Below are positions 1 through 16,431 of a stretch of DNA of 18,950 nucleotides, one piece after another. The DNA lies in the IMG/VR virus record IMGVR_UViG_2778261447_000004, positions 1 to 18,950 of that record; one strand, given 5' to 3'. The first letter of the stretch is position 1. Each line of letters begins with the position of its first letter. Position numbers and translations under genes: made by a program. The notes beneath the pieces were generated by a model. That model was not told the origin of the DNA. It searched no databases and worked only from the letters and a program-made list of their open reading frames with translations. This stretch comes from a virus. Its lineage: Duplodnaviria > Heunggongvirae > Uroviricota > Caudoviricetes.

Positions 1-46
1 AGGTCGCTGTCTTCACAGCTTACGAACCTGAGGAGTAAGAGACCAG

Positions 47-66
47 GCGAGGGAGAAATCCCTCGC
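47..66. other. Perfect 8-bp inverted repeat gcgaggga/tccctcgc with a 4-nt loop (GAAA on +, UUUC on -); possible terminator-like hairpin 77 nt beyond the stop of the minus-strand lipoprotein gene
   Basis: Stem and loop read directly from the sequence. No clean U-tract follows on either strand, so terminator function is uncertain. Confidence 0.25.
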
Positions 67-142
67 CACCTCTGATGTGTCAGGCATTCTCAACGCACCC
101 GCACTTAACCCGCTTCGGCTGTTCCTTAGTTTGTCCTGATTT

Positions 143-496
143 TTATTTATTACTAATACATGATTTAATTCCTTGAATCCTCTTGTTTTTTCCATTGGTA
201 GGATCTAACACACCTCGAAGAGAATAAAAATCAATAGTGGTAGAGCCGTCTGCTGACTTATAAATGTCGGCATTATCTGCAACTGCTAATACACTGTAAT
301 ATTTACCAATTTTTTGAGAAGTGATAGTATACAAGAGAGGTACACGTTGCCACTCACTGAGAATGCATTCTTGTATTTCTTGTGGTGGAGAATTTGTTTT
401 AAATGAAATGATAATATCCTGCTCTTCTCTATAATTATAAGGGTTTACGCATCCAGAAATTGCGAAAGAAAACAGAAGAATAATGATCCTGTTCAT
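143..496 (-). CDS. Small lipoprotein (117 aa), function unknown; AT-rich accessory gene
   Basis: ATG at 496 preceded by AGAGG. N-terminus MNRIIILLFSFAISGCVN is a signal peptide with lipobox ISGC, and +2 residue Val suggests outer-membrane sorting. Visibly AT-rich. The ORF track's upstream extension to 526 lacks a ribosome-binding site. Confidence 0.6.
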   Translation of the reverse strand: MNRIIILLFSFAISGCVNPYNYREEQDIIISFKTNSPPQEIQECILSEWQRVPLLYTITSQKIGKYYSVLAVADNADIYKSADGSTTIDFYSLRGVLDPTNGKNKRIQGIKSCISNK

Positions 497-558
497 TTTT
501 TTGCCTCTTTTGAAAATATTACTCAATTATTTTAGTTGCGGTGTGTTATAAGCATTAA

Positions 559-858
559 CTATAAAATATTAGATTCATAATTTTGTCCGCCGTGGTAAAC
601 GCCAGCGATAAAGACTTTATTGCCATCAACGGCAAAAGCAATAATCGTTCTGTGTCGGAAATGAGTTACCCGCATCCCCTGGCGAATATCATCGCGTTTA
701 TTGCCCCGATGCGGGAATGTAGAAAACCCATCAAGATAATCAAGAAGCGCATTGGCATAATTGTCAGCAATGACGCTTCCTGCTTTCTCCGTTATATATC
801 TGTGCAGGTTTATTATCTGCTGTTCGGCCTCGGGGGTAATGATGACTTCATATGTCAT
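559..858 (-). CDS. parE: Type II toxin, ParE/RelE superfamily (99 aa)
   Basis: About 100 aa, basic, with ParE-like composition. Starts 5 nt after the stop of an upstream ribbon-helix-helix antitoxin ORF on the same strand, the canonical antitoxin-then-toxin layout. Family assignment is from memory. Confidence 0.7.
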   Translation of the reverse strand: MTYEVIITPEAEQQIINLHRYITEKAGSVIADNYANALLDYLDGFSTFPHRGNKRDDIRQGMRVTHFRHRTIIAFAVDGNKVFIAGVYHGGQNYESNIL

Positions 859-863
859 GCAGA

Positions 864-1121
864 TTACTTCCCGGATCGAATCGCGGCGCGAACCTGTGAA
901 ATGGAGCGTCCGTTGTTTGGATTTTCGCGGATAGAATCAAGAGAGGGGGCGGCTGAATGCGTTAACCACGCTTCGATTGCTTTATCGCGCTCATTCAGTG
1001 CACGAAGCCCTTCACGAATGACCTCGCTTTCTGAAGCATAGGCACCGGAAGCCACACGGGCGCGCACCATGTCAGCCATCTCGTTAGTTAATGTAATGCT
1101 GAATTGTTGGGTTGTACGCAT
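864..1121 (-). CDS. parD: Type II antitoxin, ParD/CopG-like ribbon-helix-helix (85 aa)
   Basis: Internal ATG at 1121 preceded by GTGAGG. Product MRTTQQFSITLTNEMADMVRARVASGAYASESEVIREGLRALNER fits the ribbon-helix-helix antitoxin pattern (strand, helix, G-x-S turn, helix). Immediately precedes the toxin ORF. Confidence 0.7.
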   Translation of the reverse strand: MRTTQQFSITLTNEMADMVRARVASGAYASESEVIREGLRALNERDKAIEAWLTHSAAPSLDSIRENPNNGRSISQVRAAIRSGK

Positions 1122-1202
1122 GGTAAACCTCACGGAGTAGGATAGAACACTATTCGATGATAGCACGCTGCCTGTTGACGACAACAGAAATCAGAGACAA
1201 TA
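1122..1202. promoter_or_regulatory. Divergent promoter/operator region between the minus-strand toxin-antitoxin operon and the plus-strand DUF968-rusA-Q genes
   Basis: Plus strand: TTGACG (1174-1179), 17-bp spacer, CAATAT (1197-1202). Minus strand: TTGTCG, 16-bp spacer, TATCAT upstream of the antitoxin. Both are weak-to-moderate sigma70 matches found by eye. Confidence 0.3.
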
Positions 1203-1256
1203 TTGCCGCACGCCAGCCTGAACAACTGGCACCTGCTGCGCCAGCAGAGAAAACAA

Positions 1257-1529
1257 ATGGCGCACAATACCAAAAATCACAATTCTGATGCCGTTCGTGC
1301 CAGCAGGCATGGGCGGCGTTCGCGCGTATTTAAAACCGACTGGTACCAACACCCTCCATGCACTGAAGAACAGGCCGAATGGCTGATTCAGTGTTACCGC
1401 AGACACGGATACGAGATTAAGAAAGCCCTCAGCCTCGATTATCGTCACTGGATAATCTCCGTCAGGCTTCCTTACTCAGAACGCCCACCGCGTCCGTCCC
1501 GCACATACCAGCAACGTATCTGGAGGTAA
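1257..1529 (+). CDS. Hypothetical basic protein (90 aa), nin-region ORF
   Basis: Open frame ending 1 nt before the GTG start of the next gene. ATG at 1257 has only a weak ribosome-binding site; a TTG at 1203 is the alternative start. No family recognised. Confidence 0.35.
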   Translation: MAHNTKNHNSDAVRASRHGRRSRVFKTDWYQHPPCTEEQAEWLIQCYRRHGYEIKKALSLDYRHWIISVRLPYSERPPRPSRTYQQRIWR

Positions 1530-1530
1530 C

Positions 1531-2580
1531 GTGCGGGTATTACTTCGACCTGTTCCGGTACCGGAACTCGGGCTGGTGGTCCTTAAGCCGGGCCGTGAAT
1601 CCATGCAGGTATTTCATAATCCTCGTGTGCTGGTGGAGCCGGAACCGAAAAGCATGCGTGGTCTGCCGTCCGGAGTCGTGCCTGCCGTTCGCCAGCCGCT
1701 GGCGGAGGACAAATCATTACTGCCATTTTTCAGCAATGAGCGGGTGATTCGTGCTGCTGGCGGTGCTGGTGCACTGTCTGACTGGCTGTCGCGTCATGTC
1801 AAATCCTGCCAGTGGCCTCATGGTGACTATCATCACAGTGAAACCGTCATACATCGTTACGGTACCGGTGCGATGGTATTGTGCTGGCACTGCGACAATC
1901 AGTTGCGTGACCAGACATCCGAATCACTTGGGCAACTTGCTCAGCAAAACCTGTCAGCATGGATGATTGACGTCATCCGTCACGCAATGAATGGCGCACA
2001 GGAGCGGGAATTATCGCTGGCTGAATTGTACTGCTGGGCTGCTGTAAATGATGTAGTGGATGCCATGACCGAAAATATGGCGCGTCGAATCCTGAAGCTT
2101 CCGGGTGAAAAAATCCGCTCAATATACCGCGAGAGCGACATCATACCGGGAGAACAGACTGCCACCAGCATACTGAAGCAGCGCACAAAAAATATTGTGC
2201 TACCGCCTCACGCCCACCAGCAACAGAACCCACCACAGGAAAAGACGGTGGTCAGCATTGCCGTTGATCCGGAGTCTCCTGAATCTTTCATGAAGCGACC
2301 TAAACGTCGCCGTTGGGTAAATGAGAAATATACGCGCTGGGTAAAGACACAGCCGTGTGCGTGTTGTGGTAAGCCAGCCGACGATCCCCATCACCTGATT
2401 GGTCATGGTCAGGGCGGAATGGGAACAAAATCCCACGATATTTTTACGCTACCGCTGTGCCGGGAGCATCACAATGAACTTCATGCTGATCCGCTGGCAT
2501 TTGAAGAAAAGCATGGTTCCCAGATTGATTTAATTTTTCGTTTTCTTGATCACGCCTTTGCAACCGGCGTGCTCGGGTAA
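1531..2580 (+). CDS. DUF968-type prophage protein (349 aa) with C-terminal Cys/His HNH-like motif; resembles YdfU of the E. coli Qin prophage
   Basis: GTG start with GGAGG 5 nt upstream. C-terminus CACCGKPADDPHHLIGHGQGGMGTKSHDIFTLPLCREHHNELHA is a zinc-binding HNH-like signature typical of DUF968. The length matches my recollection of YdfU, but I am not certain of it. Confidence 0.75.
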   Translation: MRVLLRPVPVPELGLVVLKPGRESMQVFHNPRVLVEPEPKSMRGLPSGVVPAVRQPLAEDKSLLPFFSNERVIRAAGGAGALSDWLSRHVKSCQWPHGDYHHSETVIHRYGTGAMVLCWHCDNQLRDQTSESLGQLAQQNLSAWMIDVIRHAMNGAQERELSLAELYCWAAVNDVVDAMTENMARRILKLPGEKIRSIYRESDIIPGEQTATSILKQRTKNIVLPPHAHQQQNPPQEKTVVSIAVDPESPESFMKRPKRRRWVNEKYTRWVKTQPCACCGKPADDPHHLIGHGQGGMGTKSHDIFTLPLCREHHNELHADPLAFEEKHGSQIDLIFRFLDHAFATGVLG

Positions 2581-2592
2581 AAGAGGTTACTG

Positions 2593-2967
2593 ATGCGTAT
2601 AGAGTTTGTTTTGCCTTACCCGCCGACGGTGAACACCTACTGGCGACGTCGTGGCAGCACATATTTTGTATCAAAAGCCGGTGAGTGTTATCGCCGTGAT
2701 GTGGCACTTATTGTTCGCCAGCAGCGGCTGAAATTAAACCTGTCCGGAAGGCTGGCGATAAAGATTATTGCAGAGCCACCGGATAAGCGCCGTCGTGACC
2801 TGGACAATATCCTGAAAGCACCACTGGATGCGCTGACGCATGCCGGACTTCTCATAGACGACGAGCAGTTTGATGAAATCAATATTGTGCGCGGTCAGCC
2901 TGTTCCTGGTGGGCGGCTGGGCGTGAAGATTTACGAAATAATGCATGACGGGGAGGTCCAAAAATGA
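2593..2967 (+). CDS. rusA: Crossover junction endodeoxyribonuclease RusA (Holliday junction resolvase)
   Basis: Ribosome-binding site AAGAGG. Contains the RusA signature PDKRRRDLDN and DALTHAGLLIDDEQ, alignable to E. coli RusA (PDRRRRDLDN, DALTKAGFWLDDAQ). Typical position just upstream of Q. Confidence 0.85.
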   Translation: MRIEFVLPYPPTVNTYWRRRGSTYFVSKAGECYRRDVALIVRQQRLKLNLSGRLAIKIIAEPPDKRRRDLDNILKAPLDALTHAGLLIDDEQFDEINIVRGQPVPGGRLGVKIYEIMHDGEVQK

Positions 2968-3785
2968 AACTGGAAGATTTACCGAAATACTATTCCCCAA
3001 AATCGCCAGGCCTGACTGATGCATCCGTCTCGACGTCAAAAGATGCGCTGAGCATCACTGATGTGATGGCTGCGCAGGGTATGACACAAAACCGGGCTGA
3101 GATGGGATTTTCTGCGTTCCTGGGGAAAATGGGCATCAGTATGAATGACAGAACGCGGGCAACAGAATTACTGGCAGATTATGCACTCAGTCGGTGCGAT
3201 CGCGTGGCGGCGTTGAGAAAACTTCCGGCAGAAATAAAACCGACAGTGATGCGCATTATGGCTTCGTACGCTTTTGAGGATTATGCCCGTAGTGCAGCGA
3301 GTAAAAAACAGTGCCCTTGTTGCGGTGGGAAAAAATTTATTGAAAGCGTAGTTTTTACAAACAAGGTCCAGTATCCGGATGGTAAACCGCCGGTATGGGC
3401 AAAGTGTACAAAGGGTGTGTATCCGTCTTACTGGGAAGAATGGAAAAAAGTCCGGGAAGTGGTAAAAGTTGCCTGTCCTGAATGCGGGGGAAAGGGTGAG
3501 GTCTCCACCGCCTGTAATGATTGCCGTGGGCGTGGTGTCGCCATTCATCGTGAAGAGTCGGTAAAACGTGGTATGCCTGTTATCAGAGACTGCCAGCGTT
3601 GTGGTGGTCGTGGCTATGAAAGATTACCGTCAACAGAGGCGTTTAATGCCATATGCAAAGTGACGAGCGCTATCACTCTTGATACGTGGAAAAAATCAGT
3701 GAAGCGTTTTTACGATACGCTGGTGGTTCGGTTTGACATTGAAGAGTCATGGGCGGAGCGGCAGTTGAAGAGGGTAACGCGATAG
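2964..3785 (+). CDS. Late-gene antiterminator Q-like protein (273 aa) with four DnaJ-type CxxCxGxG zinc-finger repeats
   Basis: Start overlaps the rusA stop (ATGA). Lies immediately upstream of a PR'-like promoter and tR'-like terminator. Cys-rich repeats CPCCGGKK, CPECGGKG, CNDCRGRG, CQRCGGRG. Assignment is by synteny and Zn-finger content, not confirmed homology. Confidence 0.6.
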   Translation: MKLEDLPKYYSPKSPGLTDASVSTSKDALSITDVMAAQGMTQNRAEMGFSAFLGKMGISMNDRTRATELLADYALSRCDRVAALRKLPAEIKPTVMRIMASYAFEDYARSAASKKQCPCCGGKKFIESVVFTNKVQYPDGKPPVWAKCTKGVYPSYWEEWKKVREVVKVACPECGGKGEVSTACNDCRGRGVAIHREESVKRGMPVIRDCQRCGGRGYERLPSTEAFNAICKVTSAITLDTWKKSVKRFYDTLVVRFDIEESWAERQLKRVTR

Positions 3786-3790
3786 TGTTG

Positions 3791-3833
3791 TTGATTTTTC
3801 CCGAATCTGTGGTAAATTCGCACTAACGATGGG
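3791..3833 (+). promoter_or_regulatory. Late promoter PR'-like with extended -10 and sigma70 pause element (qut region)
   Basis: -35 TTGATT (3791-3796), 16-bp spacer, extended -10 TGgTAAATT (3810-3818), then AACGATGGG (3825-3833). Lambda PR' has the same architecture (GGGTAAATT followed by AACGATGGG). Confidence 0.7.
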
Positions 3834-3867
3834 CGTTTTATACCTGACGTTAAAAGATTTTTTACAA

Positions 3868-3890
3868 CCCGCCGCCGTGCGGGTTTTTTT
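3868..3890 (+). terminator. Rho-independent terminator, tR'-like
   Basis: Stem CCCGC (3868-3872), loop CGCCGT, stem GCGGG (3879-3883), then seven T (3884-3890). Lies about 65 nt after the predicted late transcription start. Confidence 0.75.
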
Positions 3891-4011
3891 GTGTCCGAAA
3901 AACAGCACAGGACGTTAAACGCGCTGGTGGTTGCGAATACAGGTCTTTCAGCTTGCTGGCTTTTTAGACAAGAGTTATTGGTATGTCATGTTAACCAGAA
4001 GGGAAAAAGAC

Positions 4012-4209
4012 ATGCTAAAACAGCAAGATATGACAGAAACCGCCAGAGTGGTGCTTAATGAATTAAGCGTCACCGAACCGGCGACCGTCGGGGAGATTGC
4101 GCAGAATACTTACCTTTCACGCGAATGCTGCCAGTTAATACTGACCCAGCTTGTTATGGCGGGCCTGGCAGATTATCAGTTCGGTTGTTACAGACGCCTT
4201 CCGCAGTGA
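4012..4209 (+). CDS. Small hypothetical protein, possibly winged-helix DNA-binding (65 aa from the ATG at 4012)
   Basis: ORF 3931-4209; the ATG at 4012 has GGGAAA upstream, with alternative starts at 3931, 3988 and 4030. Segment TVGEIAQNTYLSRECCQLILTQLVMAGLADY resembles a helix-turn-helix recognition helix plus wing. No family recognised. Confidence 0.4.
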   Translation: MLKQQDMTETARVVLNELSVTEPATVGEIAQNTYLSRECCQLILTQLVMAGLADYQFGCYRRLPQ

Positions 4210-4359
4210 AGGCTTTTTAATTTGTGGTAATGGGCGGCTGGTGGGTGTTAGCGGCACCTGCCAGCCATCTGCTCATGCGTTGGGGTCACAAGCAAACCTC
4301 AGGCCCATCTGCTTTGCGCAAAAGCGGTATGAGCCTATCAGAGAAGCGCTTATTGATCT

Positions 4360-5412
4360 ATGGCTAATACTGTAAAAATATCCAGTTGTGAGTTAATCAA
4401 CGCTGATTGCCTGGAATTTATCCAGACCTTACCGGAAAACTCTGTCGATCTGATTGTCACAGACCCGCCATACTTTAAAGTGAAACACGAAGGCTGGGAT
4501 AACCAGTGGAAGGGCGATGATGATTACCTGAAATGGCTGGATCAGTGTCTAGCGCAGTTCTGGCGGGTGTTAAAACCTGCCGGAAGCCTTTACCTGTTCT
4601 GCGGTCATCGTCTGGCATTTGATACCGAAATCATGATGCGTGAACGCTTTAATGTGCTGAACCACATTATCTGGGCGAAGCCGTCCGGACGATGGAACGG
4701 GTGCAATAAAGAAAGTCTGCGCGCATATTTTCCTGCCACAGAGCGCGTTCTGTTTGCTGAACATTACCAGGGGCCATATCGCGGCAAAAGTGACGGCTAT
4801 GCAGCAAAAGAAAGGGAACTCAAACAGCACATAATGGCACCGCTGATTTCGTATTTCAGGGATGCTCGTGCCGAACTGGGTATAACGGCAAAACAAATTG
4901 CCGAAGCCACAGGTAAGAAAAATATGGTTTCCCACTGGTTTGGTGCCAGTCAGTGGCAGTTGCCGAATGAGGCTGACTATCGGAAGTTACAGGCACTGTT
5001 TTCCCGTATAGCGGCAGAGAAGTTTCAGGAACAACAACTGGAACAACCACACCACCAGCTGGTGGCATCTTATGATTCACTGAATCGCAAATATTCTGAA
5101 TTGCTGGATGAGTTTAAATCTCTCCGGCGCTATTTCTCCGTATCAGTCTCCGTGCCTTATACCGATGTCTGGACGCATAAGCCCGTTCAGTTCTACCCGG
5201 GGAAACATCCGTGTGAGAAACCGGCGGATATGCTCAGACAAATAATCAATGCCAGTAGTCGACCAGGTGATCTGGTTGCTGATTTTTTTATGGGATCCGG
5301 TTCCACAATAAAAGCAGCAATGGCGCTGGGGCGTCGGGCCTTAGGTGTTGAGCTTGAGTCAGAGCGGTTTAATCAGACAGTGAAAGAGATAAACGAGCTG
5401 GTGGGGAAATAA
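4360..5412 (+). CDS. Orphan DNA methyltransferase, beta-class N6-adenine/N4-cytosine type (350 aa)
   Basis: Catalytic motif IV DPPY near the N-terminus (LIVTDPPYF) and SAM-binding motif I FxGxG near the C-terminus (DFFMGSGST). Motif IV before motif I is the beta-class order. No adjacent restriction endonuclease ORF. Confidence 0.85.
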
Positions 5413-5418
5413 TCTGGT

Positions 5419-5440
5419 GGCCACGTCAGGTGGCCTTTTT
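5419..5440 (+). terminator. Rho-independent terminator between methyltransferase and holin
   Basis: Stem GGCCAC (5419-5424), loop GTCAG, stem GTGGCC (5430-5435), followed by TTTTTATTT. Confidence 0.6.
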
Positions 5441-5479
5441 ATTTCCATTACACAGCACCCGCATCTGCGAGGTGGGGTT

Positions 5480-5695
5480 ATGAAATCCATGGATAAGTTA
5501 ACAACGGGTGTCGCCTATGGCACCTCGGCAGGCAGTGCCGGGTACTGGTTTTTGCAGTGGATTGATCAGGTTAGTCCGTCACAGTGGGCTGCTATTGGTG
5601 TGCTGGGGAGTCTGGCACTGGGCTTTCTGACTTATCTGACGAATCTGTATTTCAAAATTAAAGAGGATCGGCGCAAAGTGGCGCGGGGAGAGTAG
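5480..5695 (+). CDS. S: Pinholin/antiholin, phage 21 S-type (71 aa, dual-start MKSM)
   Basis: Product [71 protein letters not shown] is near-identical to phage 21 S21 as I recall it. Two in-frame starts (5480 and 5489) are separated by a Lys codon, the classic antiholin/holin dual-start motif. Confidence 0.9.
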
Positions 5696-5698
5696 GCG

Positions 5699-6010
5699 AT
5701 GAATAAAAAATACGAACTGGTTATTAAAGGGATAAGTAGTCACCCGGATAAGGTTGTGGTTACTGTGGCGCTGGAGAGCGACGGCTATCCGACGCTGTTT
5801 TCGCCGCATGTGGTGATTAAGCTTGATCGTGTTGACGGCGCAGCGCTGGAGCTTTATGAAGCAGAGGCGAAAAAACGAGCGAAGAAGATTTTTATGGATG
5901 CTGCTGCCGGGTTATGTGAAGCGTGGTCGTTGCCGGAAAAGCGCCTCCATTCAGAGGCGCGGTATACCATAAAAATTAACGGTTCAGATAACTCAATTGC
6001 TGGTTTTTAA
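5699..6010 (+). CDS. Hypothetical protein between holin and endolysin (103 aa); possibly YdfR/DUF1327-like
   Basis: ATG with GGAGAG upstream, 3 nt after the holin stop. Same position and length as YdfR in the Qin prophage lysis cassette as I recall it. Sequence identity not verified. Confidence 0.55.
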   Translation: MNKKYELVIKGISSHPDKVVVTVALESDGYPTLFSPHVVIKLDRVDGAALELYEAEAKKRAKKIFMDAAAGLCEAWSLPEKRLHSEARYTIKINGSDNSIAGF

Positions 6011-6246
6011 CCTTTTGTCTCAGTTGGCTTTCCAATATCTTTCATTGGTAGCAGCATTTCGATATTGCTTTTGATATATGGATTATCTGCATGTTCTGTT
6101 AATTGATAAATGATAGCATTTTTTTCATTCTGGTCTAATACAGAAAACATAACTGCAATCATATATTTAAGAGCCTCAATTTCTCCTGTTGTTGAGTTGG
6201 GGGATGAACAGTCCGCTGTAACATTAATAAAAGTTTCTTTTTTCAT
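6007..6246 (-). CDS. Hypothetical small protein (79 aa), AT-rich antisense gene inside the lysis cassette
   Basis: ATG at 6246 preceded by AAGGA with 7-nt spacing. Visibly AT-rich compared with neighbours. Convergent with the 103-aa ORF, with a 4-bp overlap at the stops. No family recognised. Confidence 0.5.
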   Translation of the reverse strand: MKKETFINVTADCSSPNSTTGEIEALKYMIAVMFSVLDQNEKNAIIYQLTEHADNPYIKSNIEMLLPMKDIGKPTETKG

Positions 6247-6270
6247 ATCAGATCCTTAGATGGGGTAGCT

Positions 6271-6332
6271 CAGCCAACCACCCGAGCCTTAACCGGAACG
6301 CCAGTGCCCACTACACTACTGGCGGGCTGAGG
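6271..6332. other. Nested inverted repeats in the intergenic region between the antisense small gene and the endolysin
   Basis: CTCAGCC (6271-6277) pairs with GGCTGAG (6326-6332). Inner pair GCCAGT / ACTGGC has a 12-nt loop. No U-tract; function unknown. Confidence 0.3.
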
Positions 6333-6370
6333 CTTTAACATATCCAGGGTTCAGAAAACGATAAATATCC

Positions 6371-6904
6371 ATGAGCACAAAAATCAGATACGGCCTGTCG
6401 GCTGCCGTTCTGGCGTTGATTGCTGCAGGTGCATCCGCTCCCGTCATTCTTGACCAGTTTCTGGACGAAAAAGAAGGTAATCACACTACGGCATACCGTG
6501 ATGGCTCCGGTATATGGACCATCTGTCGGGGTGCCACGATGGTGGATGGAAAACCCGTTTTTCCCGGTATGAAACTGTCGAAGGAAAAATGCGACCAGGT
6601 CAACGCTATCGAACGGGATAAGGCGCTGGCATGGGTGGAGCGCAATATTAAAGTTCCACTGACCGAAGCACAGAAAGCGGGTATTGCGTCATTCTGTCCC
6701 TATAACATTGGCCCCGGTAAGTGTTTCCCGTCGACGTTTTATAAGCGGCTTAATGCCGGTGATCGTAAAGGTGCCTGTGAGTCGATTCGCTGGTGGATTA
6801 AGGACGGTGGGCGTGATTGCCGCACACGTTCAAATAACTGCTACGGACAGGTTATTCGTCGTGACCAGGAAAGCGCATTAGCCTGTTGGGGGATAGATCA
6901 GTGA
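6371..6904 (+). CDS. R: SAR endolysin, T4-lysozyme-like muramidase (177 aa)
   Basis: N-terminal weakly hydrophobic Gly/Ala-rich signal-arrest-release segment [21 protein letters not shown]. Catalytic E-x8-D-x5-T triad in [16 protein letters not shown]. Pairs with a pinholin as in phage 21. Confidence 0.85.
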
Positions 6905-7365
6905 GAAGAGTAGTCGCGATTATCTCTGCTCTGGTTATCTGCATCATCGTCTGCCTGTCATGGGCTGTTAATCATTACCGTGATAACGCCATTACCTACA
7001 AAGCCCAGCGCGACAAAAATGCCAGAGAACTGAAGCTGGCGAACGTGGCAATTACTGACATGCAGATGCGTCAGCGTGATGTTGCTGCGCTCGATGCAAA
7101 ATACACGAAGGAGTTAGCTGATGCGAAAGCTGAAAATGATGCTCTGCGTGATGATGTTGCCGCTGGTCGTCGTCGGTTGCACATCAAAGCAGTCTGTCAG
7201 TCAGTGCGTGAAGCCACCACCGCCTCCGGCGTGGATAATGCAACCAGCCCCCGACTGGAAGACACCGCTGAACGGGATTATTTCACCCTCAGAGACCGAT
7301 TGATGACGATGCAGAAGCAACTGGAAGGGGCGCAGGAATATATCCGCACCCAGTGCATTAAGTAG
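6901..7365 (+). CDS. Rz: Spanin inner-membrane subunit Rz (i-spanin)
   Basis: GTG start overlapping the endolysin stop (GTGA). Product [44 protein letters not shown] is near-identical to lambda Rz. Confidence 0.85.
7121..7303 (+). CDS. Rz1: Spanin outer-membrane lipoprotein subunit Rz1 (o-spanin), embedded in Rz in the +1 frame
   Basis: Product [60 protein letters not shown] with lipobox VVGC and proline-rich stretch, near-identical to lambda Rz1. GGAG 7 nt upstream. Confidence 0.85.
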
Positions 7366-7388
7366 CCTTTTTGTTATCAGGAGAATGT

Positions 7389-7595
7389 ATGAAGAAATTA
7401 CAGGTAACCGCAAAGCTCTTTAATGGAAGAATCCCGTTCCGGATTTTACAGCGTGGTCGTGTTCTGGCTGAAGGTACATTCAGTGGTAAATGCACGGAAT
7501 GTTATTCACGAATATATGAAGTGGATGCCTCGGATGAAGATATAACCGTTGAGTGTAATGCCGGGATTGTATCGGCCACATTGCTTCATGGGTGA
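7389..7595 (+). CDS. Hypothetical small protein (68 aa); stand-alone copy of a domain repeated in the 286-aa ORF
   Basis: ATG at 7389 preceded by AGGAG. By-eye alignment: KKLQVTAKLFNGRIPFRILQRGRVLAEGTFSGK...YEVDASDEDITVE...GIVSATLL versus residues about 113-185 of the 7961-8821 product KKALLVTANQLSGRVDFQVRQGGRVLVNDAFVGR...YDVDADDQDISIS...GIVLTAELL. Confidence 0.55.
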   Translation: MKKLQVTAKLFNGRIPFRILQRGRVLAEGTFSGKCTECYSRIYEVDASDEDITVECNAGIVSATLLHG

Positions 7596-7624
7596 ATTGG
7601 GTTGTCGCTGGAGGATGCAGGCAA

Positions 7625-7825
7625 ATGAATTACCAACTGGCAAAACTTTATCGTGGTAAACATTTCGCAGGGTATGGGATTGCAGTTAATGGTGAGTTAC
7701 TGGAAGGGCAGCTTTCCGCCAGGACAGAGTCACGTGGAGGCGAGCCACCAACAGTCACTGTGACTTTCAGACTGACAGCAGAACATATCGAGAATCAGCC
7801 CGTCATTCAACTGAACAGGGTGTGA
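7625..7825 (+). CDS. Hypothetical small protein (66 aa); weaker, possible third copy of the same domain
   Basis: ATG at 7625 with GGAGGA 9 nt upstream; a GTG at 7592 is the alternative start. AKLYRGKHFAGYGIAVNGELLEGQLSAR loosely aligns with AKLFNGRIPFRILQRGRVLAEGTFSGK of the preceding ORF. Confidence 0.5.
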   Translation: MNYQLAKLYRGKHFAGYGIAVNGELLEGQLSARTESRGGEPPTVTVTFRLTAEHIENQPVIQLNRV

Positions 7826-7832
7826 GGTATTT

Positions 7833-7961
7833 ATGCCATCACGAATCCCACGTGCCTGCCGTAAGCGTGGATGCGCAGGTACAATCACAGACAGTTCTGG
7901 TTACTGCGATAAACATCGTGTGCGACCGTGGTTGCTCGGTGTCTTTGTCAGGAGGTTTTGA
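7833..7961 (+). pseudogene. Short ORF (42 aa) resembling the N-terminal zinc-binding region of a phage HNH endonuclease; probable truncated remnant
   Basis: ATG at 7833 with GAGG 6 nt upstream. Product MPSRIPRACRKRGCAGTITDSSGYCDKHRVRPW... has the C-x3-GC ... GYC-x2-H pattern seen at the N-terminus of terminase-associated HNH endonucleases. Frame ends after 42 codons with TGA overlapping the ATG of the next ORF, where composition becomes AT-rich. Confidence 0.4.
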
Positions 7962-8821
7962 TGAAAGAGTTGCAAAAAATTAATTCAATAATGGAAAGGT
8001 TAAGTGCTCTTGAGCGTAAGCTGGACGATTGTGGAAAGCTGTGTGTTGAAAAGCAAAATGAGCTTTACCGGGAATTTTTTACAATCGTAAGTGAGCTGAT
8101 GCCAATTGTTAATAACTGCCTGATGACATCCAGATTTTTTAATGTCGATGCTACTACATCCAGAAAATTTTCTGTGAAAATTCAAGAAAGAGTTTCTGGT
8201 AGTGTGACAAGAGAGATGGCTGAACAGTTGGTGGCAATGAGCAATAAAACAAAAAGAAAAAAGGCATTGCTTGTAACAGCAAATCAGCTTTCAGGGCGCG
8301 TTGACTTTCAGGTCAGACAGGGTGGGCGTGTACTGGTAAATGATGCGTTCGTTGGACGTAGCTTTAGTCCTTACTCGATAAAATATGATGTTGATGCAGA
8401 TGATCAGGATATCAGCATTTCCTGGAAATCTGAGACAGCAGGGATTGTATTAACAGCAGAGTTGTTGAGTGATGATAAAAATGATGTCCAGCATCATTTG
8501 GACGAAAAGAATCATATTTCTGAAATTTGTATGAAGCCACGCAGCGGAATGACTTTATTGTCACGCACTCTTGCTGCTGGCTTTTCTGCACCGGAAAAAC
8601 GTGTGCTTCTGGTAGTGCCTGAAGATGCAGATATTCGACCACTGAATGGCTGTGATGTTATTAGTGCAAAAACATTGCATACCCGCGTCATTCCTGTACC
8701 GGATGTGGTCATTATTGATGATGTTGAGAAATGCAAGTCTGTTTCCTCAACTGCCACAATCAAGCGAATTTTACGTTGTAGCACGTCGGCTGTTGTATTC
8801 CGGAAGCAGTTACATAACTAA
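7961..8821 (+). CDS. Hypothetical protein (286 aa): N-terminal predicted helical region, central domain paralogous to the 68-aa ORF, unique C-terminal region
   Basis: ATG at 7961 with AGGAGG 5 nt upstream. Strongly AT-rich relative to the phage backbone. Internal domain homology described under 7389-7595. No family recognised. Confidence 0.65.
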   Translation: MKELQKINSIMERLSALERKLDDCGKLCVEKQNELYREFFTIVSELMPIVNNCLMTSRFFNVDATTSRKFSVKIQERVSGSVTREMAEQLVAMSNKTKRKKALLVTANQLSGRVDFQVRQGGRVLVNDAFVGRSFSPYSIKYDVDADDQDISISWKSETAGIVLTAELLSDDKNDVQHHLDEKNHISEICMKPRSGMTLLSRTLAAGFSAPEKRVLLVVPEDADIRPLNGCDVISAKTLHTRVIPVPDVVIIDDVEKCKSVSSTATIKRILRCSTSAVVFRKQLHN

Positions 8822-8944
8822 CCAGTTTTGTTTTGCAGAACATCCTCAACTAAAAGCTTATAGAAAGAGAGCCTGAGATATTTTTTCTGTCTCTCGTAGT
8901 TGTTTGTTTTTTTCGAACAGGCTTACAACTTACAGGATATAAAC

Positions 8945-9394
8945 ATGCAAGAAGAAGCAAATAAAATTCTTGTTGATTTATTGCAGAAGGCCAGCGATGG
9001 AATTGATTCCGCCATTGCATTCAGTCAGGCTCAGATTCCGGATGTTGTTCATCAGTTGCTGGTATGGAATATGGTTGATAGCCTGATTAAAACATTAATA
9101 GCCATTTCAACAATCCCTCTGGTTTTCTGGTTTATGAAGAAGCAGTGCCAAAGAGTTGAGACAGGTAAAATCGGTGATGAAGGATATTCATGGGAGAAGG
9201 GAAATCCCAAATACAGGCCGACAATGGTTTGGGATAGCAAAGGTGATATTAATCTTCTTATCGTGCCATTGGTTGGAGTTTTGACTATGTGGGGGATTTT
9301 TATTATTTGTGCAGTAACCAATATGACATGGTTAAAAATCTGGCTGGCACCTAAGTTATATCTAATCGAATACGCAGCATCACTAATTAAATAG
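8945..9394 (+). CDS. Hypothetical membrane protein with two predicted transmembrane helices (149 aa)
   Basis: ATG at 8945 with AGGA 7 nt upstream. Hydrophobic segments LIKTLIAISTIPLVFWFM and INLLIVPLVGVLTMWGIFIICAV. AT-rich. Followed by terminator-like hairpins. Confidence 0.6.
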   Translation: MQEEANKILVDLLQKASDGIDSAIAFSQAQIPDVVHQLLVWNMVDSLIKTLIAISTIPLVFWFMKKQCQRVETGKIGDEGYSWEKGNPKYRPTMVWDSKGDINLLIVPLVGVLTMWGIFIICAVTNMTWLKIWLAPKLYLIEYAASLIK

Positions 9395-9451
9395 TCCATT
9401 ACAAAAGCCATTCGCTACAGAGTGGCTTTGATAATGGCTTATGCCCTGTAC

Positions 9452-9477
9452 GGGATAACTTAACTGATATCCCTTTT
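9452..9477 (+). terminator. Putative rho-independent terminator closing the accessory cassette
   Basis: Stem GGGATA (9452-9457), 10-nt loop, stem TATCCC (9468-9473), then TTTT. A second weaker hairpin AAAGCCA...TGGCTTT lies at 9403-9428. Confidence 0.45.
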
Positions 9478-9688
9478 AACGGATAAAGGTATTCAAGCCT
9501 GACACATCATGCGCTGTATCGTCGCCGTATTCCCGTATTAACAGAGACCGTAGCCCGACGGGGAACTCCTCTGCGCGAGTGTGCGGGAATAATCAAAAAC
9601 GATGCACACCGGGTTTTACTGTGCTGACAGACGCAGGGTTACCCTCATAGTCGCTTTTCCGGTGCGATGGTGGAAGAAACCGGGATGT

Positions 9689-9883
9689 TTATTCATCATC
9701 TCTTTGGATTGATGTATATGCTCTCTTTTCTGACGTTAGTCTCCGACGGCAGGCTTCAATGACCCAGGCTGAGAAATTCCCGGACCCTTTTTGCTCAAGA
9801 GCGATGTTAATTTGTTCAATCATTTGGTTAGGAAAGCGGATGTTGCGGGTTGTTGTTCTGCGGGTTCTGTTCTTCGTTGACAT
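9689..9883 (-). CDS. Small ribbon-helix-helix-like DNA-binding protein (64 aa); resembles DUF3950/YlcI-type prophage proteins
   Basis: Product MSTKNRTRRTTTRNIRFPNQMIEQINIALEQKGSGNFSAWVIEACRRRL fits a ribbon-helix-helix pattern after a basic N-terminus. Only a weak ribosome-binding site. Family attribution is from memory. Confidence 0.5.
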   Translation of the reverse strand: MSTKNRTRRTTTRNIRFPNQMIEQINIALEQKGSGNFSAWVIEACRRRLTSEKRAYTSIQRDDE

Positions 9884-10031
9884 GAGGTTGCCCCGTATTC
9901 AGTGTCGCTGATTTGTATTGTCTGAAGTTGTTTTTACGTTAAGTTGATGCAGATCAATTAATACGATACCTGCGTCATAATTTATTATTTGACGTGGTTT
10001 GATGGCGTAGATGCACGTTGTGACATGTAGA

Positions 10032-10046
10032 TGATAATTATTATCA
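10032..10046. promoter_or_regulatory. Palindrome TGATAATTATTATCA matching the 7-1-7 Fur-box motif, about 35 bp upstream of cosN
   Basis: GATAAT-T-ATTATC is a perfect inverted repeat around a single central base (10033-10045). With flanking T and A it matches the Fur 7-1-7 consensus tGATAATnATTATCa. It could also be a chance AT-rich palindrome or a packaging-related site. Confidence 0.25.
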
Positions 10047-10081
10047 TTTTGCGGGTCCTTTCCGGCATGTGGACCGTTACG

Positions 10082-10093
10082 GGGCGTCGACCT
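10082..10093. other. cosN cohesive-end site (12-nt overhang), lambda-like
   Basis: GGGCGTCGACCT followed by CGCGGTTTTTCGCTATTTATGA matches the lambda left end GGGCGGCGACCTCGCGGGTTTTCGCTATTTATGA with one mismatch in the 12-mer. Preceded by GTTACG as at the lambda right end. Nu1 and A genes follow. Confidence 0.7.
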
Positions 10094-10309
10094 CGCGGTT
10101 TTTCGCTATTTATGAGATTTTTTGAGGGGGTGGTTGTTGTTTAATTGTTTGGTATATCTAATTGATAAGTAAGGTGAAAATAAAATAAATACAACAACCT
10201 TACGATGTGCTTTGATGTCATTAATGTGAAAAAATTAAATGATATCAAATGGTTTTGTAAAAACACATGGTTGTTGTATCGCTTTTTATCGATGACTTAT
10301 GGAGAGGAG

Positions 10310-10816
10310 ATGGCCTTTTTATTGAATAAAAGTGATATGGCCTCCTCCATCGGTATCTCTGTTCAGGCATTTGATAAATGGGGCGTTCCTCCTGTCGAGC
10401 GTCGGGGGAGGGAAGTTTTTTATGACGTTAAAACTGTACTGGAGATAGATCGCGAGCGGCGACAACACAATCATAGAACACCTGATGACGGGGGCGATCT
10501 GGAGGAAAGGCTGCTTCGGGCCAGAGCTGAACTGACAGAAGAACAGGCCGTAGCTCAAAAACTTAAAAATCAGGTAACCGAAGGTAAGCTCATCGATTCA
10601 GACTTCTGCGTTTTCGCCCTCAGCAAGCTGGCGATGGCATTGTCCAGTACGCTTGATTCTATTCCGTTATCCATGCAGCGACAGTTCCCGGATTTAACGC
10701 CACGTCATCTTGACCATCTGAAAACCCTTATTGCGAAGGGCGCAAATCAGTGTGCGCGGGCAGGGGATAAATTACCGGATTTGCTGGATGAATATATCAG
10801 AGCAACAACTGAATAA
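10310..10816 (+). CDS. nu1: Terminase small subunit Nu1
   Basis: ATG at 10310 with GGAGAGGAG upstream. Alignable to lambda Nu1: ALSKLAMALSSTLDSIPLSMQRQFPDLTPRHLDHLK versus VLSRIAGEIASILDGLPLSVQRRFPELENRHVDFLK. Stop overlaps the start of A as in lambda. Confidence 0.8.
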   Translation: MAFLLNKSDMASSIGISVQAFDKWGVPPVERRGREVFYDVKTVLEIDRERRQHNHRTPDDGGDLEERLLRARAELTEEQAVAQKLKNQVTEGKLIDSDFCVFALSKLAMALSSTLDSIPLSMQRQFPDLTPRHLDHLKTLIAKGANQCARAGDKLPDLLDEYIRATTE

Positions 10817-12716
10817 TCTGATGGCTGCCGTTTCGGTTGCGCTGCAGCCTCTGGTCAGGGTTGTACCGATGACGGCAGTTGAATGGGCTGACCAGTATTA
10901 TTATCTGCCGAAAGAATCCTCATACGGTGACGGCGAATGGAAAACGCTGCCGTTCCAGATCGCCATCATGAACAGTATGGGGAATGATCAGGTCCGCACT
11001 GTTAATCTGATTAAATCTGCCCGTATTGGTTATACAAAGATGTTGCTGGGGGTGGTCGGGTATTTTATTGAGCATAAATCCCGAAACAGTCTGCTTTTTC
11101 AGCCCACGGATTCTGCCGCTGAAGATTTTATGAAGTCTCACGTGGAGACGACGATTAGGGATGTGCCATGTCTGAAAGACCTTTCTCCATGGCTGGGGCG
11201 TAAACATCGTGACAATACTCTCACGCTGAAACGCTTTTCATCGGGTGTGGGCTTCTGGTGCCTGGGTGGTGCGGCAGCAAAAAACTACCGTGAAAAATCC
11301 GTGGACGTGGTCTGCTATGACGAACTCTCATCGTTTGAACCTGATGTTGAAAAAGAGGGCTCGCCAACCCTGCTGGGGGATAAGCGTATTGAGGGCTCTG
11401 TATGGCCAAAATCCATTCGCGGCTCGACGCCTAAAATCAAAGGCTCCTGCCAGATCGAAAAAGCCGCTAACGAGTCGGCACATTTCATGCGTTTTTATGT
11501 GCCCTGCCCGCACTGTGGGGAGGAGCAGTATCTGAAATTTGGCGATGAATCCACGCCTTTTGGCCTTAAATGGGAGAAGGACAGCCCCGAAAGCGTTTTC
11601 TACCTTTGTGAGCATCATGGCTGTGTGATCCATCAGTCTGAGCTTGACCAGAGTAACGGGCGGTGGATCTGTGAAAACACGGGCATGTGGACCCGTGACG
11701 GCCTGATGTTTTTCAGCGCCCGGGGTGATGAAATTCCGCCGCCGCGTTCCATCACTTTCCATATCTGGACGGCGTACAGTCCGTTCACCACCTGGGTACA
11801 GATTGTCTATGACTGGCTGGATGCACTGAAAGATCCCAACGGCCTGAAAACCTTTGTGAACACCACGCTGGGCGAGACCTGGGAAGAGGCCGTGGGCGAA
11901 AAACTCGATCACCAGGTACTGATGGATAAGGTTGTGCGTTACACGGCGGCGGTGCCTGCCCGGGTGGTTTATCTGACGGCGGGCATTGACTCGCAGCGAA
12001 ACCGTTTTGAGATGTATGTCTGGGGATGGGCTCCGGGAGAGGAAGCCTTTCTGGTGGATAAAATCATTATTATGGGGCGTCCCGATGAGGAAGAGACGCT
12101 GTTACGTGTGGATGCAGCGATCAACAAAAAATACTGCCATGCAGACGGAACCGAAATGACCATTTCCCGTGTCTGCTGGGACATCGGGGGGATCGATGGA
12201 GAAATCGTTTATCAGAGGTCAAAAAAACACGGTGTTTTCCGGGTGCTGCCGGTAAAAGGCGCATCTGTCTATGGCAAGCCGGTGATCACCATGCCAAAAA
12301 CCCGCAATCAGCGGGGCGTGTATCTGTGTGAAGTGGGGACAGACACCGCAAAAGAAATTCTCTATGCCCGTATGAAAGCCGCTCCCACGCCTGCGGATGA
12401 ATCCACGTCGTATGCCATCCGTTTTCCTGATGATCCGGAGATTTTTTCGCAGACAGAGGCGCAGCAACTGGTCGCGGAAGAGCTTGTGGAGAAGTGGGAA
12501 AAAGGAAAGATGCGTCTGCTGTGGGATAACAAAAAGCGGCGTAACGAAGCGCTGGACTGCCTGGTGTATGCCTACGCGGCATTACGTGTGTCCGTGCAAC
12601 GCTGGCAGCTTGATCTGGCTGTACTGGCAAAATCCCGGGAAGAAGAGACGACCCGGCCAACCCTTAAAGAACTGGCAGCGAAGCTGTCCGGAGGAGTGAA
12701 TGGTTACAGTCGCTGA
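10788..12716 (+). CDS. A: Terminase large subunit gpA (642 aa)
   Basis: Starts MNISEQQLNN (lambda MNISNSQVNR). Long collinear identity to lambda gpA including TAVEWAD, YYLPKES, MKRF..G.GFWCLGG and CPHCGEEQYLKFGD. Confidence 0.95.
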   Translation: MNISEQQLNNLMAAVSVALQPLVRVVPMTAVEWADQYYYLPKESSYGDGEWKTLPFQIAIMNSMGNDQVRTVNLIKSARIGYTKMLLGVVGYFIEHKSRNSLLFQPTDSAAEDFMKSHVETTIRDVPCLKDLSPWLGRKHRDNTLTLKRFSSGVGFWCLGGAAAKNYREKSVDVVCYDELSSFEPDVEKEGSPTLLGDKRIEGSVWPKSIRGSTPKIKGSCQIEKAANESAHFMRFYVPCPHCGEEQYLKFGDESTPFGLKWEKDSPESVFYLCEHHGCVIHQSELDQSNGRWICENTGMWTRDGLMFFSARGDEIPPPRSITFHIWTAYSPFTTWVQIVYDWLDALKDPNGLKTFVNTTLGETWEEAVGEKLDHQVLMDKVVRYTAAVPARVVYLTAGIDSQRNRFEMYVWGWAPGEEAFLVDKIIIMGRPDEEETLLRVDAAINKKYCHADGTEMTISRVCWDIGGIDGEIVYQRSKKHGVFRVLPVKGASVYGKPVITMPKTRNQRGVYLCEVGTDTAKEILYARMKAAPTPADESTSYAIRFPDDPEIFSQTEAQQLVAEELVEKWEKGKMRLLWDNKKRRNEALDCLVYAYAALRVSVQRWQLDLAVLAKSREEETTRPTLKELAAKLSGGVNGYSR

Positions 12717-15990: not shown

Positions 15991-16026
15991 AGCCAGTGCT
16001 GACCATCAATAGGAGGTTTTTACAAT

Positions 16027-16374: not shown

Positions 16375-16381
16375 CACGTTA

Positions 16382-16403: not shown

Positions 16404-16431
16404 CTGATTTCTGAATGAAAGGAACTGATTT

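Follow-up and report, generated by a model that had tools for sequence, protein, structure and literature searches.

A conserved, covarying leader RNA upstream of an M.EcoGII-family DNA methyltransferase gene in a late-operon cargo cassette of a lambdoid prophage

Results

The cassette

The DNA analyzed here, 18,950 nucleotides (nt) of the IMG/VR virus record IMGVR_UViG_2778261447_000004 (positions 1 to 18,950; this whole stretch is hereafter called the window), contains the late region of a lambdoid prophage. Its nearest genomic copies are on E. coli chromosomes (99.5-99.8% identity). Between the genes for the Q antiterminator and the holin lies a cassette with the order terminator, conserved motif, gene for a 65-amino-acid (aa) winged-helix protein, terminator, leader RNA of ~130 nt, DNA methyltransferase gene, terminator (Table 1). 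The cassette has been annotated since SfV and phiP27 and is very common. What we add is that the "spacer" between its two genes (4210-4359), treated as empty in a preliminary description of this locus, appears from comparative analysis to be a conserved two-domain structured RNA, which covaries strongly, has no Rfam match and is not described in the literature searched.

Table 1. Features in and around the cassette. Promoter, terminators and RNA structures are predictions.
Feature	Positions	Strand	Details
DUF968/HNH protein	1531-2580		
RusA	2593-2967		
Q antiterminator gene	2964-3785	+	PF03589, E = 3.5e-51; context, outside the cassette
Putative PR′-like late promoter	3791-3818	+	TTGATT (3791-3796), 16 nt, TGgTAAATT (3810-3818); read by eye
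Intrinsic terminator, tR′-like, cassette left edge	3866-3892	+	Hairpin 3866-3885, seven-pair stem plus U7, -11.0 kcal/mol
Invariant two-block motif	3952-3988	+	CTTGCTG-N13-AGAGTTAT-N2-GTATGTCA
65-aa winged-helix protein gene	4012-4209	+	phrog_331, E = 3.7e-37; PHROG function unknown
Terminator-like hairpin over the winged-helix stop codon	4196-4223	+	Hairpin 4196-4213, six-pair stem plus UUUUU, -8.9 kcal/mol, z = -2.4
Leader RNA domain 1	4230-4276	+	P1 (AUGGGC/GCUCAU) around a 12-bp hairpin; 3′-side AUCU bulge
Leader RNA domain 2	4284-4358	+	Irregular long hairpin P2-P3-P4; 3′ strand GCUU..UGAUC at 4348-4358
M.EcoGII-family beta-class N6-adenine DNA methyltransferase gene	4360-5412	+	350 aa; PF01555 N6_N4_Mtase, E = 5e-43
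Intrinsic terminator, cassette right edge	5419-5443	+	Hairpin 5419-5435, GGCCAC/GUGGCC plus UUUUU, -12.2 kcal/mol, z = -2.5
P21-type class II holin	5480-5695	+	PF04971, E = 1.6e-34; context

The leader RNA

The gap between the two genes is 150 nt long in the window and 142-154 nt in 32 loci ranging from Escherichia to Providencia and Plesiomonas, with invariant blocks. Structure prediction by RNAalifold and manual inspection gave two domains. Domain 1 folds at -30.4 kcal/mol (z = -4.4; 0 of 200 shuffled sequences fold as well) and is the most persistent part of the leader, being kept alone in some short-spacer loci; domain 2 folds at -27.8 kcal/mol (z = -2.9). Helix P2 covaries across loci (AAGC/GCUU, GGGC/GCCC, GGAC/GUUY), as does P4, and a G-C to A-U change is seen in P3. 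The 3′ strand of P2 stops 2 nt before the methyltransferase AUG, and most homologues have the bases from -14 to -4 paired in their minimum-free-energy folds. There is no Shine-Dalgarno sequence at normal spacing before the methyltransferase gene, the nearest purine-rich runs lying ~12-20 nt upstream (GAGAAG here, AAAAAGG in other clades).

In most cross-genus comparisons, the leader is the most nucleotide-conserved part of the cassette. Its identity between the window and other genera is mostly 75-82% (57-71% for Providencia, Hafnia and Buttiauxella L022), while in the same comparisons the flanking genes are saturated at synonymous sites (synonymous divergence, dS, above 1 or undefined), with coding identities of 53-76% for the winged-helix gene and 60-74% for the methyltransferase gene.

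With a covariance model built from 29 loci, a single copy was found in each of 34 genome and phage loci (34 of 34), always abutting the methyltransferase start, and all 80 viral contigs that encode close methyltransferase homologues had a leader directly upstream; this first contig scan returned only relatives of at least 95% identity and served to assess linkage, not covariation. In the training-related set, 96.1% of cells were paired and 11 pairs showed double changes, compared with 3.8 ± 1.4 in shuffles. An independent set of 80 viral loci was then scored for covariation; their methyltransferases share 63-86% identity with the Plesiomonas enzyme that seeded the scan. The model matched 60 of these loci, 55 over the full length and 5 with domain 1 alone ahead of the AUG. 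Among the 40 distinct sequences, 88.5% of cells were paired (74.0% when shuffled), double changes occurred at 26 of 37 pairs (206 such cells versus 67 ± 6.6), and the covariation score was 0.374 versus 0.144 for shuffled alignments, with 0 of 500 shuffles reaching 0.374. Compensatory changes were found at 11 of the 12 pairs of the domain 1 hairpin, and single pairs showed up to five pair types (pair 17-38: AU 13, UA 8, GC 7, CG 6, UG 2). These alignments were fitted to the covariance model, which favors structure; controls in which the partners were shifted by 1-3 columns scored 0.045-0.096. Given these low control scores and the many pair types, chance or phylogeny alone is unlikely to account for the signal. 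Furthermore, G·U pairs are frequent (14 U·G at pair 17-37; 26 G·U at pairs 8-50 and 64-140), which argues for a sense-strand RNA rather than a DNA palindrome and disfavors reading domain 1 as an operator.

Rfam 15 contained no match to 4210-4359 at E ≤ 1, including all known S-adenosylmethionine (SAM) and S-adenosylhomocysteine (SAH) riboswitch classes, and seven related loci likewise had leaders without a match at E ≤ 0.5; no description of the leader was found by literature term searches. On this basis, SAM/SAH riboswitches, ribozymes and prophage small RNAs of known families were set aside. Among individual candidates, the prophage anti-small RNAs AgvB and AsxR are located 3′ of the cargo gene instead, and the paper on the small RNA Pas makes no reference to a methyltransferase. 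The segment GGCGGCUGGUG was rejected as an RfaH ops element, since it misfits at the critical T6 and varies freely as a helix arm. A switch helix between the 3′ strand of P1 and the 5′ strand of P2 is perfect in Plesiomonas, but is not supported, the majority of loci pairing at only 5 of 7 positions with two central mismatches.

The simplest inference from the predicted fold is that the leader keeps methyltransferase initiation low, and we lean towards the view that it is a functional cis-regulator by itself. It could instead be something other than a translational gate, namely an RNase III processing or stability element, a SAM/SAH-type riboswitch or an autorepression site for the methyltransferase, which we consider possible but on balance unlikely. 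With its 18 bp, irregular pairing and asymmetric internal loop, the domain 1 hairpin resembles phage RNase III sites, and invariant stems and internal loops beside variable hairpin arms are typical of ligand- or protein-binding RNAs. The methyltransferase is also accompanied more faithfully by the leader than by the winged-helix gene, and M.EcoGII binds and methylates RNA (PMC5778455; PMC11551740). The Rfam result speaks against the known riboswitch classes, however, and since P2 ends at the start codon, control of initiation is the simplest implication.

The methyltransferase

The predicted enzyme, one residue longer than M.EcoGII (349 aa), carries DPPY at residues 35-38 (nt 4462-4473) and FxGxG, in the form F-M-G-S-G, at residues 310-314 (nt 5287-5301). 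The motif order is that of the beta class because motif IV (DPPY) lies N-terminal to motif I (FxGxG). Neither the open reading frames (ORFs) of the window nor a profile search of it revealed a restriction endonuclease gene adjoining the methyltransferase gene. The preliminary description, which had proposed an orphan beta-class methyltransferase, was therefore right, and both catalytic motifs are intact.

Compared over the full length with M.EcoGII, 288 of 349 positions are identical (83%, 2 gaps), and identity to the reconstructed ancestor Anc291 is 88%, both reference sequences having been machine-read from the supplementary tables of PMC11551740 with a few reading errors. Identity is 94% to SfV orf48 and 83% to the enzyme of phage 1720a-02, which Murray et al. 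2018 named as a close M.EcoGII homologue (PMC5778455). By sequence, then, the enzyme is a member of the known M.EcoGII family and not a novel type. The ratio of nonsynonymous to synonymous substitution rates (dN/dS) of the gene is 0.06-0.11. Only distant beta-class enzymes match among solved structures, and these matches are limited to the two catalytic half-domains; the central 165 residues are the family's own target-recognition and linker region, which is helix-turn-helix-like.

The preliminary description had raised the question of the target sequence, and homology answers it: the enzyme probably recognizes no specific site and may modify any adenine. Anc291 has been made and is active on DNA and RNA, methylating RNA without a discernible sequence motif, M.EcoGII is active without a partner protein, and M.PflMI, the nearest site-specific relative, lies outside the clade of M.EcoGII and Anc291 (PMC11551740). 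The prophage-borne M.EcoGI and M.EcoGII are reported to be unexpressed in the lysogen and deleterious if expressed, and are presumed to help the phage overcome restriction on infection (PMC5778455; PMC12707154). Literature term searches for expression of the enzyme after prophage induction found nothing relevant.

The preliminary description had also allowed for an epigenetic role. A heritable role of this kind in the lysogen is unlikely if, as homology suggests, the enzyme has no specific target, and we regard a sequence-specific or lysogen-expressed methyltransferase with an epigenetic or regulatory function for the host as very improbable. Orphan phage methyltransferases can be regulatory (PMC12707154), and 17% of positions differ from M.EcoGII, some of them within the central target-recognition region. 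However, the enzyme is bracketed by two experimentally non-specific relatives, M.EcoGII and Anc291, with M.PflMI outside their clade; M.EcoGI and M.EcoGII leave no signature on the lysogen methylome (PMC5778455); and expression in the lysogen is made less likely by three predicted terminators together with an occluded start site.

Terminators, promoter and upstream motif

The pattern of an intrinsic terminator, a G+C-rich hairpin followed by a U-run, is found three times in the cassette, and termination is predicted at each. Two of these sites bracket the cassette, including one before the holin, as the preliminary description had stated; the third, over the winged-helix stop codon, was absent from its list. 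In total, 10 terminator-like sites were seen at 2900-6500, versus 3.7 ± 2.3 in shuffles. In alignments, nearly all related loci have a hairpin and T-run 5′ of the winged-helix gene, with a covarying stem. The stem of the second hairpin also covaries across loci (GCCUUC/GAAGGC, GCUGCC/GGCGGU, GCCUCC/GGGGGC) and is absent in Providencia, and the SfV annotation has a terminator at the position matching the right-edge site.

Upstream of the cassette, we infer a PR′-like late promoter at 3791-3818. It agrees with 8 of 12 consensus positions and was thus just missed by the scan, the threshold of which was 9; its -10 element, TAAATT, equals the one of lambda PR′. Homology to SfV begins at 3825, the transcription start expected from this promoter. 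Promoter and terminator together would yield a transcript of ~65-70 nt (3825-3892), at the place where lambda has its 6S RNA and Stx phages have StxS. A weak Rfam match to Trp_leader at 3824-3892 (E = 0.76) is probably just the tR′-like terminator.

The two-block motif at 3952-3988 is present in 33 of 35 genome and phage loci at a fixed distance of 58-61 nt from the winged-helix ATG (69-70 nt in Providencia). The spacer between its blocks is variable in sequence, no RNA structure is predicted at the motif by RNAalifold, and the motif is not palindromic. It matches a sigma-70 promoter poorly (TTGCTG with TATTGG or TATCTG, no T at -7), and the promoter scan was negative there. By eye, none of the sigma-70, sigma-54, sigma-32 or sigma-E promoters, a CII site, a LexA box or boxA fits, and by appearance the motif looks like a two-block DNA site. 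A candidate promoter between the winged-helix gene and the leader (TGTGAAAAT) was rejected, as its -10-like hexamer is unconserved (GGTAAT, TGAAAT, TGGAAT).

Distribution, linkage and mobility

A 1.7-kb segment matches 54 phage records, including SfV, mEp460, the cdtI phage, phiP27, 1720a-02 and many phages encoding Shiga toxin (Stx) 2a, 2c or 2d, and the cassette was found in 2934 of the 5426 complete E. coli genomes, where a single genome can have as many as 8 copies. It lies between Q and the holin gene in SfV, mEp460 and Hafnia phage yong2, as in the window, while phiP27, 1720a-02 and many Stx2a/2c/2d phages have the order Q, winged-helix ORF, methyltransferase, (tRNAs), stx. The preliminary description had assigned the cassette to the stx-equivalent cargo site. 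Its placement between PR′/tR′ and the holin is correct, but the cassette does not replace stx: phiP27 and 1720a-02 have it upstream of stx, so that the two share the late-operon cargo site, and these phages and Stx2 phages carry both. Homology to phages with unrelated Q genes starts at ~3862 (phiP27 and Stx phages) and ends between 5378 and 5480, and the starting point indicates that the mobile unit includes the upstream terminator. The methyltransferase start follows the winged-helix start by 326-354 nt in 34 of 35 loci holding the winged-helix gene. In Enterobacterales, the winged-helix gene, leader and methyltransferase gene always travel together.

A second, unrelated conserved leader was found in ten of the loci that lack the first (L125, L128, L137, L175, L180, L181, L187, L189, L192 and L193). 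It is located ~200 nt upstream of the methyltransferase start (locus 2300-2500) and consists of GCCUUGAGUACCUGAGACCCA, a hairpin, UGGAGAGGAAGCA, a G+C-rich hairpin, UUCAAGGCUCU, AGGAGA and the AUG; it has no Rfam match. It is preceded by a LexA-box-like sequence, CTGTATATAAACACAG, and an extended -10 element, TGaTAAaCT, which suggests that transcription of the methyltransferase gene in this clade may be under SOS control. With this second type also present, long structured leaders seem general to the gene family, and restriction of expression to the SOS response or the late phase seems to be a recurring theme.

Several copies are decayed, with an internal deletion (L023) or a frameshift (L024) in the winged-helix gene, a premature stop (L031), or a leader without a detectable methyltransferase (L025), all of which fits cryptic prophages. 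Two loci come from assemblies labelled Bacillus sp. (L006, from a metagenome-assembled genome with a contig of 2.5 kb) and Chryseobacterium sp. (L015); their protein identities are typical of Enterobacterales, and the labels probably reflect mis-binning or contamination.

The winged-helix protein

The mechanically called ORF at 3931-4209 encodes 92 aa from a TTG, while homologues place the start at ATG 4012. The N-terminus that results, MLKQQDMTE, is conserved, and homologues are 63-67 aa long. The 92-aa extension is non-coding because indels upstream of 4012 are not multiples of three. The preliminary description had given the small ORF as 65-92 aa: the shorter version is a real gene, as its dN/dS of 0.04-0.48 against other genera indicates, and the longer one is not upheld, its upstream frame not being kept. 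This range is that of a gene under purifying selection, as judged from the aligned sequences. The 92-aa version and the overlapping ORFs at 3891-4058 and 4151-4375 are regarded as chance ORFs, with no family matches and no conservation of the upstream frame. A read-through fusion with the methyltransferase, which is in the same frame 150 nt downstream, was rejected given in-frame TAA, TAG and TGA codons between the two and homologues with 1-nt indels.

AlphaFold2, run on a 22-sequence alignment, predicts a canonical winged helix with a mean predicted local distance difference test score (pLDDT) of 92.8 and a predicted template-modeling score (pTM) of 0.79. The predicted topology is H1-strand-H2-H3-hairpin wing (helices at 9-16, 26-33 and 37-49, a strand at 24, wing strands at 53-56 and 59-62), in agreement with the winged-helix-like segment noted from the sequence earlier. 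The closest Foldseek matches are winged helices of MarR, OhrR and IclR (TM-scores 0.77-0.80, E about 1e-3); others are N-terminal domains of O-methyltransferases and T4 MotA, with the SelB RNA-binding domain at rank 48. No winged helix of the DpnI type, which senses N6-methyladenine (m6A), is among the top 50. The protein has no match in Pfam (E ≤ 0.01), NCBIfam (E ≤ 1) or PADLOC, and a sequence search of solved structures gave at best SarZ/MarR at E about 0.5. NCBI names many homologues "TrmB family transcriptional regulator" or "DprA-like winged helix"; the TrmB (PF01978) and DprA-like winged-helix (PF17782) profiles are not significant for the window protein, and a precomputed PF17782 match is present in 2 of 120 homologues, among the matches listed.

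The family is narrow, with 318 homologues and 59 representatives among 1.84 billion cluster representatives, and was found only in Enterobacterales-type prophages (hosts Escherichia, Shigella, Salmonella, Klebsiella, Citrobacter, Buttiauxella, Hafnia, Providencia, Plesiomonas and similar). Conservation is focused on the nine N-terminal residues and helix 3 (CQLILTQLVMAGL), which is kept even in very remote versions as the motif hhh[E/T]Q[L/M/F]; the variable parts are helices 1-2 and the wing. Three cysteines are present (39, 40 and 58), two of these positions being broadly conserved. There are at least two alleles, 52-53% identical to each other, beside identical leaders and methyltransferases that are 94-95% identical (SfV, L001, versus mEp460, L005); carriers of the divergent allele are mEp460, cdtI and Stx2c phages. 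This pattern would imply either that recombination has had breakpoints within the cassette or that helices 1-2 and the wing are under diversifying selection.

The predicted fold bears on what the protein does. It may be a DNA-binding transcription factor, similar to C proteins or repressors, with the 3952-3988 motif, other cassette DNA or host genes as its target; we consider this rather unlikely. Its closest structural matches are DNA-binding winged helices, and the invariant motif upstream of its gene, with a variable spacer of fixed length and no predicted RNA structure, could be its site. The terminator directly after the gene could make it a separate transcription unit, and the LexA-box-like sequence and -10 element between a winged-helix-like ORF and the methyltransferase gene in second-leader loci also suggest separate transcription. 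On the other hand, the motif is a poor sigma-70 promoter where the scan found none, the protein matches no known regulator family in Pfam or NCBIfam, and it is small and acidic, without an obvious dimerization element or an evident palindromic operator.

Alternatively, the protein may have a separate function and merely be linked to the methyltransferase gene, for example in counter-defense by shielding heavily m6A-modified DNA from m6A-dependent type IV nucleases or by binding a defense protein, with the leader regulating alone. Several observations are consistent with this: the divergent alleles sit beside identical leaders and near-identical methyltransferases, dN/dS between alleles is raised (0.38-0.48), the winged-helix gene and the leader each occur alone in distant relatives, and prokaryotic winged-helix domains can sense m6A in DNA (PMC11037411; bioRxiv 2023.06.07.544091). 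Yet gene order and spacing hardly vary across Enterobacterales, and even very remote versions retain helix 3, both of which argue for coupling to a conserved part of the cassette, and neither the top 50 structural matches nor PADLOC point to a DpnI-type or defense-related protein. A separate function therefore appears improbable to us.

Adjoining genes

The Q protein has 273 aa, two stretches of which match the Q family profile; a match to the DnaJ-type CXXCXGXG zinc-finger repeat is sub-threshold (29.6 bits versus a Pfam cut-off of 32.7). The N-terminus of the holin, MKSMDK (5480-5491), has two Met codons three codons apart, the dual-start arrangement (MKSM) of the phage 21 holin/antiholin. 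After the holin gene follow genes for a DUF1327 protein, lysozyme, Rz, Nu1, gpA terminase, portal protein, S49 protease and major capsid protein E. The ~360-nt gap between the DUF1327 and lysozyme genes (6007-6370) contains a minus-strand ORF of 79 aa (6007-6246) with no Pfam match and two minus-strand promoter-like sites (6137-6110 and 6109-6082). Two plus-strand ORFs between the Rz and Nu1 genes, 7928-8821 (297 aa) and 8900-9394 (164 aa), also have no Pfam match.

Discussion

The analysis shows directly what the genes are, to which family they belong by sequence, that the leader is conserved and covaries, and how the parts are genetically linked; expression timing, an anti-restriction role and the roles of leader and winged-helix protein are inferred from these observations below. 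We consider it probable that the region is a self-contained cargo cassette of the late operon that depends on Q, serves anti-restriction and is silent in lysogens, with a putative post-transcriptional gate. Q-dependent late expression that protects progeny DNA, as the preliminary description proposed, is likely from homology and matches the published view of the M.EcoGII family (PMC5778455; PMC12707154).

In the lysogen, transcripts from PR′ would end at the first terminator, and those reading through would meet the second. Translation of any message reaching the methyltransferase gene would be poor, given the lack of a Shine-Dalgarno sequence at normal spacing and the predicted pairing, within P2, of the bases just 5′ of the AUG; through this combination of transcriptional stops and poor translation, the toxic enzyme would stay off. 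After induction, Q-modified RNA polymerase would pass all three terminators, and the enzyme would be made late and methylate many adenines on replicated phage DNA, so that progeny may be protected in the next host from restriction systems blocked by m6A. The weakest step concerns the regulators: the winged-helix protein, the leader or both would most likely form a post-transcriptional gate, by analogy with Mu Com opening the mom leader. The leader might be opened by the winged-helix protein, by the RNA-binding methyltransferase, by RNase III or by a ligand.

The pairing of this leader with an obligatorily adjacent winged-helix protein in Enterobacterales suggests a control system. In its most specific form, this would be an undescribed lambdoid counterpart of com-mom, in which a leader family of ~130 nt specific to M.EcoGII-family genes holds the start closed and the 65-aa winged-helix protein opens it late. 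We offer this form tentatively, as a possibility that is more likely wrong than right. That the winged-helix protein acts through the leader at all is doubtful in our judgment and is less likely than that the leader is a cis-regulator alone.

Several observations weigh against this partnership or against the wider reading. In the divergent set, helix P2b is paired in only 64%. The divergent alleles beside identical leaders mean that the variable part of the protein is not co-evolving with either RNA or enzyme. A mostly hydrophobic sequence, as in the best-conserved helix of the protein (LILTQLVMAGL), is atypical of a nucleic-acid recognition helix, and the protein is also slightly acidic. Moreover, among the 80 diverse viral loci, the leader and a winged-helix-like ORF occur together in 36 by motif (38 with L130 and L131, which are positive by hidden Markov model), while ~17-19 have the leader with no recognizable winged-helix ORF within 650 nt and 18 have a winged-helix-like ORF with another or no such leader type; because leader and winged-helix gene separate in these distant relatives, a strict protein-RNA partnership is weakened. 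Since M.EcoGII is active without a partner, the winged-helix protein is also not needed for catalysis. Finally, heavy m6A modification exposes DNA to m6A-dependent type IV restriction, and the net benefit of the enzyme depends on the host.

M.EcoGII is widely employed as a tool for footprinting chromatin and RNA, and more than half of complete E. coli genomes have relatives of it in their prophages, Stx phages among them. In the literature searched, we found no account of how phages silence and then switch on such a toxic enzyme. The cassette offers handles on this silencing in the form of three serial terminators, a start without a normal ribosome-binding site that is predicted to be paired into a covarying RNA, and an adjacent winged-helix protein. 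If the translational gate is real, it would represent convergent evolution with Mu com-mom and a new class of cis-regulatory RNA, and could provide a compact switch for expressing toxic nucleic-acid-modifying enzymes. If it is not, the methyltransferase gene would be ordinary, already annotated anti-restriction cargo.

Comparison with known systems

The closest characterized enzymes are M.EcoGII and M.EcoGI from prophages of E. coli O104:H4 C227-11, which share the beta-class motif order, the central helix-turn-helix-like region and the prophage location; activity of the window enzyme is predicted from this homology. PMC5778455 describes the enzyme alone, and term searches of it found no upstream winged-helix gene or structured leader. 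The 1720a-02 homologue named there has the same winged-helix gene and leader upstream as the window. The same cassette also underlies SfV orf47-orf48, phiP27 L23-L24, mEp460 gp52-gp53, and the cdtI and Stx2a/2c/2d pairs annotated "hypothetical protein plus DNA methylase" (84-92% nucleotide identity over ~1.6 kb). Order and spacing in cassettes of the SfV/phiP27/mEp460 type are as in the window, and flanking terminators are annotated in SfV. In Stx phages, tRNA genes and stx follow the cassette, whereas in the window the holin follows directly.

Lambdoid late-operon morons such as stx and bor (Juhala et al. 2000, cited in PMC4104026) likewise lie between PR′/tR′ and the lysis genes and are bounded by intrinsic terminators, and the cassette resembles them in moving among phages with different Q genes. 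Classical morons have their own promoter and are expressed in the lysogen, whereas no convincing promoter was found in the window cassette and members of its family are reported to be silent in lysogens (PMC5778455). C proteins of restriction-modification systems are also small proteins encoded upstream of a gene that is harmful if expressed at the wrong time. Those proteins, however, are XRE-type helix-turn-helix dimers that act at a palindromic C-box beside a restriction enzyme gene, whereas the window has a winged helix, no C-box that we could see and no nuclease gene.

The nearest functional parallel is com-mom of phage Mu, in which a small protein gene directly precedes the gene for a toxic, late, promiscuous adenine-modifying anti-restriction enzyme, a structured leader occludes the start of that enzyme, and Com binds the mom leader and opens the translation-inhibiting structure (PMC6483171). 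In FluMu and Pnme1 prophages, non-specific m6A methyltransferases (Hin1523, Hia5 and Nme1821/nma1821) replace mom downstream of com homologues, and putative Com sites lie at the 5′ end of the methyltransferase gene in the FluMu type (PMC3299994). The components differ: Com is a zinc finger with a four-cysteine site, whereas the window protein is a predicted winged helix lacking that feature, so that the analogy is one of function, not homology. The enzymes differ too, as Mom is not a methyltransferase and those of the Hia5 type are Dam-like (DPPY near residue 194), unlike the beta-class enzyme here. Mu-like phages use the C activator, whereas the window phage is lambdoid with Q antitermination. 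What the two arrangements would share is the logic at the start codon: the window leader is predicted to pair the bases 5′ of the AUG, and, by analogy with Com, we propose that its winged-helix protein might bind this leader.

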